In this document: positions 31,668 to 38,065 of the stretch, piece after piece
Position numbering within the stretch: the stretch's first letter is position 1
Layout of the letters: the number at the start of each line of letters is the position of its first letter
Sequence record: NC_028448.1
DNA from: Escherichia phage slur14
Reading direction: 5' to 3' (one strand)
DNA: 64,000 nt
Notes under the pieces: generated by a model
Databases searched by the model: none
Told to the model about the DNA's origin: nothing
Seen by the model: the letters and a program-made list of their open reading frames with translations, nothing else
Position numbers and translations under genes: made by a program

Positions 31668-34600
31668 ATGGCTACTTTAAAACAAATACAATTTAAAAGA
31701 AGCAAAACCGCAGGTGCACGTCCTGCTGCTTCAGTATTAGCCGAAGGTGAATTGGCTATAAACTTAAAAGATAGAACAATTTTTACTAAAGATGATTCAG
31801 GAAATATCATTGATTTAGGTATTGCTAAAGGCGGTCAAATTGATGGAAATGTAACTATCAATGGTCTTTTGAGATTAAATGGCGATTATGTACAAACGGG
31901 TGGAATGACTGTAAATGGACCTATTGGTTCTACTGATGGCGTAACAGCAAAAGTTTTCAGATCTACACAGGGTTCATTTTATGCAAGAGCAACAAACGAT
32001 ACTGCAAATGCCCATCTTTGGTTTGAAAATACAAATGGCTCAGAACGTGGCGTTTTATATTCAAAACCGCAGTCTGAAAATGAAGGCGTAATTACAATGC
32101 GTGTTCGTCAAGGAACCGCTGCGGGAGCTCAAAATTCAGAATTTCATTTCATTTCTACTGATGGTGGTATCTTCCAGGCACGCAAATTAACTGCTTTAAC
32201 TTCTATTAGTACACCAACTATTAGTGTTAATTTAATTAATCATGATTCTAAAGCCTTTGGACAATACGATTCACAATCATTGGTTCAGTATGTTTATCCT
32301 GGAACTGGTGAAACAAACGGTGTAAACTATCTTCGTAAAGTTCGATCTAAGTCAGGCGGAACTATTTACCATGAAATTTGTACAGCTCAGACTGGACTGG
32401 CAGATGAAATGTCATGGTGGACTGGTAATACACCGTTATTTAAACTATATGGTATTCGTAACGACGGTAGAATGATTATTCGCAATAGCTTGGCCATTGG
32501 TACTGTGACGCAAGGGTTTCCGTCAAGCGATTATGGAAATGCTGGGGCACTAGGAAATATATTTCTTGCTTTAGGCGATAATGGAACTGGTCTAGTTTAT
32601 AGAAAAACTGGTGTATTTGATTTCGTTGGTTCTGGTTTATCTTTGGCATCTATCACACCTGATAGTTTCCGTAGTACTCGTAAAGCAATATTTGGACGCT
32701 CAGAAGACCAAGGTACAACATGGATTATGCCTGGAACGAACGCTGCATTTTTATCAGTTCAAACACAAGCTGATGAAAACACTGCTGGAGACGGTCAGAC
32801 ACATATTGGCTATAACTCAGGCGGAAAAATGAACCACTATTTCCGTGGTAAAGGCAAAACTAATATTAATACTCAAGAAGGCATGGAAGTTAACCCGGGT
32901 ATTTTGAAATTGGTAACTGGCTCTAATAACGTACAGTTTTATGCCGACGGAACAGTATCTTCAATACAAAGAATTAAATTTGATAACGGATTAGTTCTTA
33001 CTGGTGCTAGACCCGACGGTATTCAACTTGACGCTCCTACAACAACAGATGGCACTAAAACTATATTGTGGGCCGCCGGTACTCGCCCAGGTCAGAATAA
33101 AAGTTATCTATCTATCAAAGCATGGGGTAATGCCTTTAATGCATCTGGCAATCGTGCTCGTGAAACAGTTTTTCAAGTATCAGATGGACAAGGTTACCAT
33201 TTTTATTCTCAACGAGTTGCTCCCGGATCAGGTTCTACCGTCGGACCTATTCAATTTCGAGTTAATGGTGGTTTATTAACTTCTGGTGGTATTACATCAT
33301 CTGGTTCTATTGTTACTGAATCAAGTTTAGTTGCAAATAATGGATTATCTGTAAATGGTCAGGCTAAATTCGGTGGAACAGCAGATGCGTTGAGAATTTG
33401 GAATGCTGAATACGGCGCTATTTTCCGTCGTTCAGAAACTAGCTTTTATATTATTCCTACTCTTAAAGACGCTGGTAAAAGTGGTGGAATAAGTAATTTA
33501 CGCCCATTTACCATCAATCTTGCAAATGGCAGTGTTATGATTGGTAATCATACACAAGCTGGAAAAAATTTGCTTACTATTGATAATGTATCAAAATTCG
33601 TTCAGACTGATGTTAGACTTCGTGTTAACATGGATTCTGACGGTATTGTGCTCAACGCATCATCTCAAGCATCATCTAACTTTATTCAAGGACGTAAAGC
33701 AGATGTAACAAAATGGTATTTAGGTATTGGCGATGGTGGTAATGTTGTTCGTATGCATAATTACACTTACTCCCACGGCATTGCATTGAATGCTGATACA
33801 GTCGATATTACTAAGCCTCTTAAAATTAATAATATTCGAATTGGTACTGACGGTAACATCACAGGTGGTTCTGGTAATTTTGCTAACTTGAATACCACAA
33901 TAAATAACCTTAAGACGGATATTGTCTCAAGTTATCCTATTGGTGCTCCGATTCCTTGGCCTACTGATACACCTCCTGAAGGTTATGCCATAATGGAAGG
34001 TCAAACATTTGATGCTGACTTGTATCCTAAGTTAGCTGCGGTGTATCCTTCCGGCACTCTGCCTGATATGCGTGGTCAAACTATCAAGGGTAAACCATCC
34101 GGGCGTGCTGTATTGAGTACAGAAGCAGACGGTGTTAAGTCACATAGCCATAGTGCAAGTGCATCAAGCACAGATTTGGGTACTAAGACCACTTCTAGTT
34201 TTGATTACGGTAGCAAAACGACTTCAAGCTTTGATTATGGTACTAAGACCAGTAATACCACTGGTAACCATAGCCATACAGTGAGTGGTAATACTAGTTC
34301 CGCTGGTGCGCACCAACACTCACAAACCGGTCCAAGGGGTACTAATAATCAACCCACAGGAATATATCCTAATGGATCTACTCGAATTAGCGGAACCCTG
34401 GTTGTTGGTTTTGGCCTAAGCAACGGTGTTGTGCCTGGTACAAGCCAATATATTGCAAAGTCGTCAACAGAAGGTAACCATACCCATACTTGGTCTGGTA
34501 CTACTAGCTCTACGGGTAACCACGCGCATACTGTAGGTATCGGTGCCCATAGCCATTCGGTCGGTATTGGTGCTCATACCCACACGGTAGCTATTGGTTC

Positions 34601-34691
34601 GCACGGACATACTATCACTGTAAATAGTACAGGTAATACAGAAAACACGGTTAAAAACATTGCTTTTAACTATATCGTTCGTTTAGCATAA
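31668..34691 (+). CDS. 37: long tail fibre distal subunit gp37 (receptor-binding)
   Basis: 1007 aa; C-terminal His-box repeats (GNHSHT, GNHTHT, GAHSHS, GAHTHT, GSHGHT). Confidence 0.95.
34186..34252 (+). repeat. tandem direct repeat inside gene 37
   Basis: Two adjacent ~33-nt units encoding (T/S)KTTSSFDYG. Confidence 0.6.
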
Positions 34692-34696
34692 GGAGA

Positions 34697-34716
34697 GGGG
34701 CTTCGGCCCCTTTTTA
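34697..34716 (+). terminator. hairpin after gene 37 (attenuator/terminator)
   Basis: GGGGC-TTCG-GCCCC followed by TTTTT, just before gene 38. Confidence 0.55.
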
Positions 34717-34720
34717 TAAT

Positions 34721-35272
34721 ATGAAACTCTATCATTATTATTTTGACACTAAAGAATTTTACAAAGAAGAAAATTATAAACCATTAAAAGGCGTAGGATT
34801 TCCGGCTCATTCAACACCAAAAAAACCTTTAGACCCTAAAGAAGGTTACGCTGTTGTATTTGACGAACGTGAACAAGAATGGGTATATATTGAAGACCAT
34901 CGTGGAAAAACAGTATGGACTTATGATAAGCAAAAAATTGTTATTGACACTCCAGGTGCTCTTCAAAATGTTACTACAGAAGAACCTGGTGAATTTGACA
35001 TTTGGACCGACGACGGGTGGAAGGAAGATGAAGCATATAAACGCGTAGTTCAACGTGATAAGAAAATTCATGAACTCTATAAATTATTCAGTGTTTTAAG
35101 TTCTCTTATTGACGCAGAGGTTGCTAATAGAGAAGAAAAACGAAAATTTAAAGAGCTCAAAAAATTCTTTGCCCTTTTAGAAAAACATGAACATCTTGGC
35201 GGCGAATTCCCTAAATTCCCTGACCTTGAAAACAAATCTATTATCAAAGCGATTATAAATATCTTTAAGTAA
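34721..35272 (+). CDS. 38: tail fibre assembly chaperone gp38 (T4-type, 183 aa)
   Basis: 183 aa immediately downstream of 37. Confidence 0.9.
   Translation: MKLYHYYFDTKEFYKEENYKPLKGVGFPAHSTPKKPLDPKEGYAVVFDEREQEWVYIEDHRGKTVWTYDKQKIVIDTPGALQNVTTEEPGEFDIWTDDGWKEDEAYKRVVQRDKKIHELYKLFSVLSSLIDAEVANREEKRKFKELKKFFALLEKHEHLGGEFPKFPDLENKSIIKAIINIFK
35254..35261 (+). promoter_or_regulatory. late promoter (TATAAATA) for holin t
   Basis: Exact TATAAATA 21 nt upstream of t ATG. Confidence 0.75.
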
Positions 35273-37739: not shown

Positions 37740-38065
37740 TTAAACCATCCTTTAATACGTTGCCACAAAGTTTTCTGTTGAGCTTTGTTAACACCAATTG
37801 AACGAATAACCGGTTGAGATTCCTGGAATTCTTTATAATCAGCAAGGTAAATTTCGTAAGCTGCATCAGTAAATGAACTTATCGCTGCCATAAAATTATT
37901 GCGAATACCTACTGGAGCATCTTTACTTTCACGAATAATCATGTATTTACCAGTCTTAATCTTTACGATAGTTCCAAGATAAGCTCCATGATACCAGATG
38001 TCCCACCCCTCTTGAGTGGGTTCTGCACAACGACGAAGTTCATTGACAATTTCTAACTTGTTCAT
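37736..38065 (-). CDS. hypothetical protein
   Basis: 109-aa ORF. Confidence 0.55.

Follow-up and report, generated by a model that had tools for sequence, protein, structure and literature searches.

The receptor-binding tip of gp37 in a slur03-type phage: a His-box needle, an exchangeable head and OmpC as the likeliest receptor

The C-terminal segment of gp37 in the window (i.e. the whole stretch of 64,000 nucleotides that was analysed) very probably codes for the tip (D10-D11), made up of collar, needle and head, with which the long tail fibre of a known phage, slur03, binds its receptor, most likely the porin OmpC. The tip is homologous to that of T4 but carries a different head, and its needle would be one rung longer.

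The gp37 gene and its neighbourhood

The open reading frame is 100% identical at the DNA level (megablast) to gp37 of slur03 (NC_042129.1 / LN881728) and of slur08, and its product is identical to YP_009625003.1 of slur03; the gp37 and the tip referred to here as those of slur03 are hence the product of ORF 31668-34691. The gene was already in RefSeq, where it is correctly annotated ('long tail fiber protein distal subunit' on the slur03/slur08 record), and belongs to a family that is well studied both structurally and genetically. Phage slur03 is a Tequatrovirus, one of 14 phages obtained from cattle slurry with E. coli K-12 MG1655 as host (PMC4698387). Pfam domains Gp34_trimer and gp37_trimer were matched at aa 492-616 and 659-733 of gp37, respectively, and the gene occupies its usual place in a canonical T-even fibre module, with gp34, gp35 and gp36 upstream and gp38 followed by the holin downstream. 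The features of this region are:

31668-34691, + strand: gp37, long tail fibre distal subunit, 1007 aa (from the ORF list)
34697-34715, + strand: C(UUCG)G hairpin and T-run between g37 and g38 (GGGGC-TTCG-GCCCC-TTTTT)
34721-35272, + strand: gp38, T4-type tail-fibre assembly chaperone, 183 aa, annotated 'tail fiber assembly'

The gp38 protein has 68% identity with its T4 counterpart and gave a Pfam match to Caudo_TAP. As it is of the 183-aa chaperone type, the fibre is T4-type and gp37 itself is the adhesin. In T2 and T6, gp38 is an adhesin of ~260 aa with glycine-rich motifs that caps gp37; a fibre of that kind, with a separate gp38 adhesin, is ruled out here by the chaperone type of gp38. The hairpin that separates the two genes folded with a minimum free energy of -15.9 kcal/mol and 10 pairs, flanking bases included, when a 30-nt stretch was submitted; it is kept in T4, and phage JK42 has a compensatory GGGAC/GTCCC change. 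The terminator scan did not flag this hairpin, despite its stable folding.

Architecture of the tip

The homology of the tip is directly observed: the C-terminal 263 aa of gp37 matched PDB entry 2XGF with E=1.2e-81 (phmmer against PDB), and the alignment with chain 2xgf_A (query 1-263 to chain 18-242) spans the collar and both strands of the needle. Along the chain the following elements were delimited:

33942-34085, + strand: collar domain, aa 759-806 (Pfam PF07484 Collar, E=2.6e-11; aligns to the 2XGF collar)
34143-34319, + strand: ascending strand of the needle, aa 826-884; three His boxes, at aa 826, 868 and 882
34182-34211, + strand: FDYG unit 1, aa 839-848, a 10-aa unit
34212-34241, + strand: FDYG unit 2, aa 849-858, a 10-aa unit adjoining unit 1
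34320-34478, + strand: head (tip) cassette of 53 aa, aa 885-937, predicted to make the contact with the receptor
34479-34688, + strand: descending strand of the needle plus the C-terminus, aa 938-1007; five His boxes, at aa 938, 952, 961, 970 and 979
34515-34541, + strand: additional His-box unit of 9 aa, GNHAHTVGI, aa 950-958, facing a 9-aa gap in T4

The original prediction, made from the DNA alone, had described an array of repeated GxHxH boxes in the gp37 C-terminus. The array and its tight clustering are real: eight HxH motifs lie within aa 826-981 (nt 34143-34610), three on the ascending strand (spaced by 42 and 14 residues) and five on the descending strand (spaced by 14, 9, 9 and 9 residues). 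The motif as first worded fits seven of these eight boxes, the first one reading KSHSH. All 16 histidines in the last 182 aa fall inside HxH pairs, while aa 1-825 contain no HxH at all, and shuffles of the whole protein gave a mean of 0.65 HxH and a maximum of 6 in 20,000, compared with the eight of gp37. At the DNA level the descending boxes appear as a tandem array with a 27-nt period (34533-34598; 2.4 copies, 79% matches). This repeat architecture, like the homology, is read straight from the gene. The same prediction took the region for the receptor-binding tip of a T4-type fibre, which it is, although the His boxes and the FDYG repeat that it singled out belong to the structural stem of the needle and not to the head.

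Each chain of the T4 tip follows the needle outwards, makes the head and doubles back, giving a six-stranded trimeric needle; its seven HxH motifs bind seven iron atoms, on which folding critically depends (PMC6957217, PMC12609058). By analogy, three chains of slur03 gp37 would extend outwards through the needle, make up a small head and return to build a six-stranded needle, each HxH box contributing, from all three chains, one axial metal (iron) site, and folding would be assisted by the gp38 chaperone encoded directly downstream. With three ascending and five descending boxes, eight axial metal sites are thus predicted by homology, against seven in T4. We infer from sequence both this metal binding and the packing of paired FDYG and His-box units in the tip. 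An AF2 monomer model of aa 745-1007, built on an alignment of 61 sequences, was of poor quality, with a pLDDT of 55.8 and a pTM of 0.21, the true fold being an intertwined trimer.

Comparison with T4 and other relatives

The tip of T4 gp37 has the same plan as that of slur03 (i.e. a collar and a six-stranded needle, with HxH boxes along the ascending as well as the descending strand and a head in between), the last 47 residues are identical in the two proteins, and a gp38 chaperone gene lies downstream in both. Identity with T4 is 68% over the whole protein, 80% in the collar region (aa 731-825), 63% in the ascending strand and 79% in the descending strand with the C-terminus, and falls to 9 of 53 residues (17%) in the head. 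The protein lengths given in the original prediction, 1007 aa here and 1026 aa for T4, were both borne out, but the shortfall says nothing about the tip: the entire loss of 58 aa lies in the shaft (aa 448-716), and of the 39 aa gained relative to T4 only one is in the shaft and 38 are in the tip, which is therefore longer than that of T4. The tip gains consist of a 10-aa FDYG unit (at aa 840), 19 aa in the head (53 aa versus 34 aa in T4) and a 9-aa His box (at aa 952), the last bringing the HxH boxes to eight where T4 has seven.

Closer relatives of the tip were found in another genus. The gp37 proteins of the Mosigvirus phages JK42 and vB_Eco_mar005P1/mar007P3 share the needle class and the head cassette of slur03, with tips that are 92-96% identical at the nucleotide level and 93-95% at the amino acid level, and their gp38 and holin are 95-100% identical to those of slur03; their gp37 shafts diverge (43-80% nucleotide identity), and the proteins are longer (1037 and 1079 aa). 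In another Mosigvirus, JS09, the needle, gp38 and holin are also 95-100% identical to slur03 at the nucleotide level, and a different head cassette lying between the same His boxes is essentially the only difference there. Further afield, the Stf protein of phage lambda (J02459 orf-314) belongs to the needle class of slur03, with ascending spacings of 42 and 14, descending spacings of 14, 9, 9 and 9, two FDYG units and eight HxH motifs, and is ~62% identical over the tip; its head is a different cassette of 45 aa, and its N-terminal fibre body is unrelated to that of slur03. Lambda Stf and the tail fibres of lambdoid and P2-like prophages of Enterobacterales, a family described in PMC9659904, have the collar and the C-terminal 16-aa motif that are present in slur03.

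This distribution bears on the FDYG repeat, which had been put forward as a perfect tandem duplication. A 10-aa tandem unit does exist, but the two copies are identical at 9 of 10 amino acids (T versus S) and at 23 of 30 nucleotides, with five synonymous and one non-synonymous change among the differing codons. As the copies have diverged so far at the DNA level, mostly at synonymous sites, the duplication is genuine but ancient, and purifying selection acts on both copies. T4 lacks a counterpart of one of the two units, the alignments showing a 10-aa gap there; the same two units, together with eight HxH boxes, occur in lambda Stf and in many prophage fibres, so that the repeat is no peculiarity of slur03, and it is T4 that is the variant one rung shorter than the wider tip family. 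The additional FDYG unit (10 aa, on the outgoing strand) is balanced by the additional His box (9 aa, on the returning strand), which would make the needle one rung longer.

The head as an exchangeable cassette

The head lies between the third and the fourth His box. Heads of the slur03 type were present in 29 of 50,697 phage records (76-100% amino acid identity), in both Tequatrovirus and Mosigvirus. A distant blastn search with the head DNA gave no match among 5,426 complete E. coli genomes, related heads of E. coli prophage proteins (P0005 and P0007) being visible at the protein level only.

Identity profiles from gp36 to the holin revealed a mosaic. While gp36 and the N-terminus of gp37 are 90-98% identical to T4 and the shaft is patchy, the stretch from about nt 33850 through gp38 and the holin, to at least about nt 37900, shows mostly 93-100% identity with the Mosigvirus phages JK42, mar007P3 and JS09, as against only 36-92% with T4 (compared through the holin). 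The boundaries of the head itself can be seen in the comparison with JS09, where nucleotide identity drops to 47% over nt 34297-34446: mismatches become dense at about nt 34310-34328, at the AHQH box (nt 34311-34319) or just beyond it, and grow sparser from about nt 34454 onwards, close to the NHTH box (nt 34479-34487). On both sides of the head lie the copies of a 45-nt direct repeat, which are 76% identical. The head, which has no sequence relation to that of T4, is exchanged between phages as a cassette at the His boxes, and its boundaries fit the idea, attributed to Tetart et al. (1998) in PMC3157838, that recombination between conserved motifs swaps adhesins.

The probable receptor

The T4 tip carries its LPS and OmpC contact patches at residues 932-959 (PMC6957217, PMC12609058), and single substitutions there shift the balance between LPS and OmpC and can change binding (PMC6957217). 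The listed contact residues (I933, N937, G938, G940, G942, G943, S947 and Y949; PMC6957217) are not conserved in the slur03 head. A receptor has been mapped experimentally for JK42 (MK962756.1), the C-terminal 263 aa of which are 93% identical to those of slur03 (50 of 53 residues in the head). RB-TnSeq with this phage in BW25113 gave ompC, envZ and ompR as the top genes, and the authors named OmpC as the primary and Kdo as the secondary receptor (bioRxiv 10.64898/2026.04.02.716166); dependence on OmpC was confirmed in four O157:H7 strains (bioRxiv 10.64898/2026.07.23.740414). OmpC was also the target of 17 of 17 phages with a T4-type gp37 in the RB-TnSeq study, despite 'extensive allelic variation' of the tip. 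As very different heads still target OmpC, divergence in the sequence of the tip predicts a change of receptor poorly.

By comparison with these phages, the receptor of slur03 is most likely OmpC, as for T4. The original prediction had expected a distinct receptor specificity, which would have been refuted by a tip identical to that of T4. The alignment has now been run and the tip is not identical, the head being a clearly distinct allele; as to the identity of the receptor, the use of OmpC by the nearly identical tip of JK42 makes a new one unlikely. Differences in fine specificity (e.g. for OmpC variants or in LPS dependence) are possible. The slur03 head differs from that of JK42 at three of 53 positions.

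Paired repeats along the needle

Two sets of tips were compared, one of 112 unique C-termini from a protein search and IMG/VR and one of 46 unique C-termini taken from one genome per species. The hits of the protein search were for the most part short prophage proteins or incomplete ones rather than full-length gp37s, and served for repeat architecture, not for T-even phylogeny. In both strands the spacing of the HxH boxes obeyed a simple arithmetic, hereafter the ladder rule: the first ascending spacing equals 22+10n residues when the descending strand has n+1 spacings of 9 residues, and spacings of 14 residues are equal in number on the two strands. All eight architectures encountered lie on this diagonal:

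Ascending 22; descending 9
Ascending 32,14; descending 14,9,9 (T4)
Ascending 42; descending 9,9,9
Ascending 42,14; descending 14,9,9,9 (slur03, JK42 and lambda Stf)
Ascending 52; descending 9,9,9,9
Ascending 52,14; descending 14,9,9,9,9
Ascending 72; descending 9,9,9,9,9,9
Ascending 42,14,14; descending 14,14,9,9,9

The fit was exact for 153 of about 158 tips, although these are not independent, because they are mutually related and were retrieved with slur03-like queries. Four further tips kept their length within 2 residues of the rule. In two of them (P0049 and L158) one box has a His replaced by Tyr at unchanged length; L117, from a Candidatus Erwinia dacicola contig, has lost 2 aa within a box, and L134 shows a 1-aa change. 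The only mismatch by a whole unit came from a metagenome contig (L005, IMGVR_UViG_3300030021_000020) and may reflect repeat collapse during assembly. Across the sequences seen, the number of HxH boxes, i.e. of putative metal sites, ranged from 4 to 10 per tip. A head of the slur03 type sits on a needle of T4 length in the E. coli prophage proteins P0005 and P0007, and since head families recur in this manner on needles of different length, the matching of the two strands is not simply a matter of co-inheritance.

On balance, we lean towards a view of the T4/lambda-type needle as a stack of paired rungs, in which each 10-residue FDYG-type unit of the outgoing strand would call for a 9-residue GxHxHxVxI box on the returning one, so that needle length, together with the number of metal sites, would be quantised, evolvable and able to reassort independently of the head; each head-adjacent HxH unit of 14 residues would likewise be mirrored on the opposite strand. 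In the literature covered, which did not include the primary structure paper on the T4 tip, no statement of such a pairing was found, and the nearest was a qualitative remark that the number of HxH motifs may scale with needle length (PMC12609058). The paired-rung rule may be the one regularity reported here that is new.

Alternative explanations

The reading of the tip as an OmpC-binding allele has to be weighed against one in which the divergent head gives slur03 another receptor, either a different porin or LPS alone. A head that matches T4 at so few positions and is 19 aa longer, in which none of the mapped T4 contact residues can be aligned with confidence, would be in keeping with such a switch, as would the three substitutions relative to JK42, given that single changes in the T4 tip are enough to alter the use of LPS versus OmpC. 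We nevertheless consider it improbable, as JK42 depends on OmpC in K-12 as well as in the four O157:H7 strains, every one of the 17 screened T4-type phages uses OmpC in spite of its tip variation, and slur03 was itself isolated on K-12 (PMC4698387), an OmpC producer.

Two other readings concern the repeats. Tetart and colleagues, in work of 1996, are said to have selected T4 for duplications of a small adhesin domain that expanded its host range, and the FDYG repeat could be imagined as a recent event of that kind, since it sits in the C-terminus of gp37, a region in which T4 host-range mutants with duplications are on record (cited in PMC3157838). This is extremely improbable: the copies differ at seven of 30 nucleotides, mostly at synonymous sites, both units also occur in lambda Stf and in most of the prophage homologues sampled, the repeat belongs to the stem and not to the head, and the additional His box on the other strand compensates for the additional FDYG unit. 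A duplication of that type covering the receptor-binding domain is contradicted by the same divergence and the same position in the stem. A more serious contender holds that the His-box and FDYG units are important chiefly as DNA, serving as short, conserved recombination sites for the swapping of heads, their copy number being structurally neutral. It accounts for head boundaries that coincide approximately with the flanking His boxes in the comparison with JS09, for the direct repeat on either side of the head and for the presence of one head family on needles of different length, and it agrees with the motif-mediated recombination that Tetart et al. (1998) proposed (cited in PMC3157838). 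We still find it unlikely, as neutral copy number should make unmatched combinations common, when one whole-unit mismatch was observed in about 158 tips, and as, in T4, the HxH motifs serve as metal ligands and are indispensable for folding (PMC6957217). A role in recombination is compatible with the paired-rung needle as a second function of the same repeats, not as a replacement for it.

Significance

The tip as such is largely ordinary, a near-identical one already having an experimentally mapped receptor. For fibre engineering, the head cassettes bounded by His boxes represent natural swap units, and the apparent restriction of changes in needle length to matched insertions on both strands offers a design rule for chimeric fibres, as well as a testable prediction on folding. 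If the paired-rung reading is true, the length of the needle would perhaps tune the reach of the fibre through surface glycans, slur03 and T4 then differing by one rung.

Mosigvirus-like block and the elements within it

Phage slur03 is placed in Tequatrovirus by classification. From position 33850 onward, nucleotide identity delimits a block of at least 4 kb in which slur03 mostly shares 93–100% identity with JK42, mar007P3 and JS09, all Mosigvirus (RB69-like) phages; identity to T4, for which the comparison runs up to and including the holin gene, is only 36–92%. Unlike this block, gp36 and the N-terminus of gp37 are T4-like (90–98%). Judged from these identities, the block looks like a recent inter-genus recombinant segment. 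The block and two elements lying within it are as follows:

33850 to at least 37900: Mosigvirus-like block (gp37 tip, gp38, holin, asiA and arn genes)
34263–34307 and 34473–34517: 45-nt direct repeat (family D4), copies 76% identical, one on each side of the head cassette
34697–34715: hairpin with a C(UUCG)G tetraloop (GGGGC-TTCG-GCCCC) and a T5 run after it, located after the g37 stop and before the g38 start

The two copies of the direct repeat, each encoding 15 residues, could plausibly act as homology arms for exchange or duplication of the head cassette that they flank. The hairpin between g37 and g38 was unflagged by a consensus terminator scan; the minimum free energy structure of the surrounding 30-nt stretch is −15.9 kcal/mol. 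The hairpin is kept in T4, and the JK42 version carries a compensatory change in the stem (GGGAC/GTCCC).

Related tips in other sequences

Loci L086–L097, found on low-coverage genome contigs, several of them about 48.4–48.5 kb in length, carry the C-terminus of phage lambda stf under unrelated taxon labels (Pseudomonas, Shewanella, Chromatium, Neobacillus, Paenibacillus, Leeuwenhoekiella and a Legionellaceae MAG). L090, the one locus of this set compared with J02459, is 100% identical to it, and in tblastn the remainder match the query at the same identity as L090. These loci are almost certainly lambda DNA contaminating the assemblies concerned.

A mismatch of a whole repeat unit was found in a single tip, L005:

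IMGVR_UViG_3300030021_000020, match 1501–2091: locus L005

This tip has two of the 10-residue FDYG units on the ascending needle strand against only four descending His boxes, with spans of 56 (ascending) and 32 (descending), reflecting either a real, tolerated imbalance or a 27-nt repeat collapsed during metagenome assembly.

The family of the slur03 tip also includes minimal needles, with only about four HxH boxes, no FDYG unit and spacings of 22 (ascending) and 9 (descending), in Klebsiella (L159, L160, L163 and L165) and in Desulfoluna (L151 and L152), the latter genome lying far outside the Enterobacterales.
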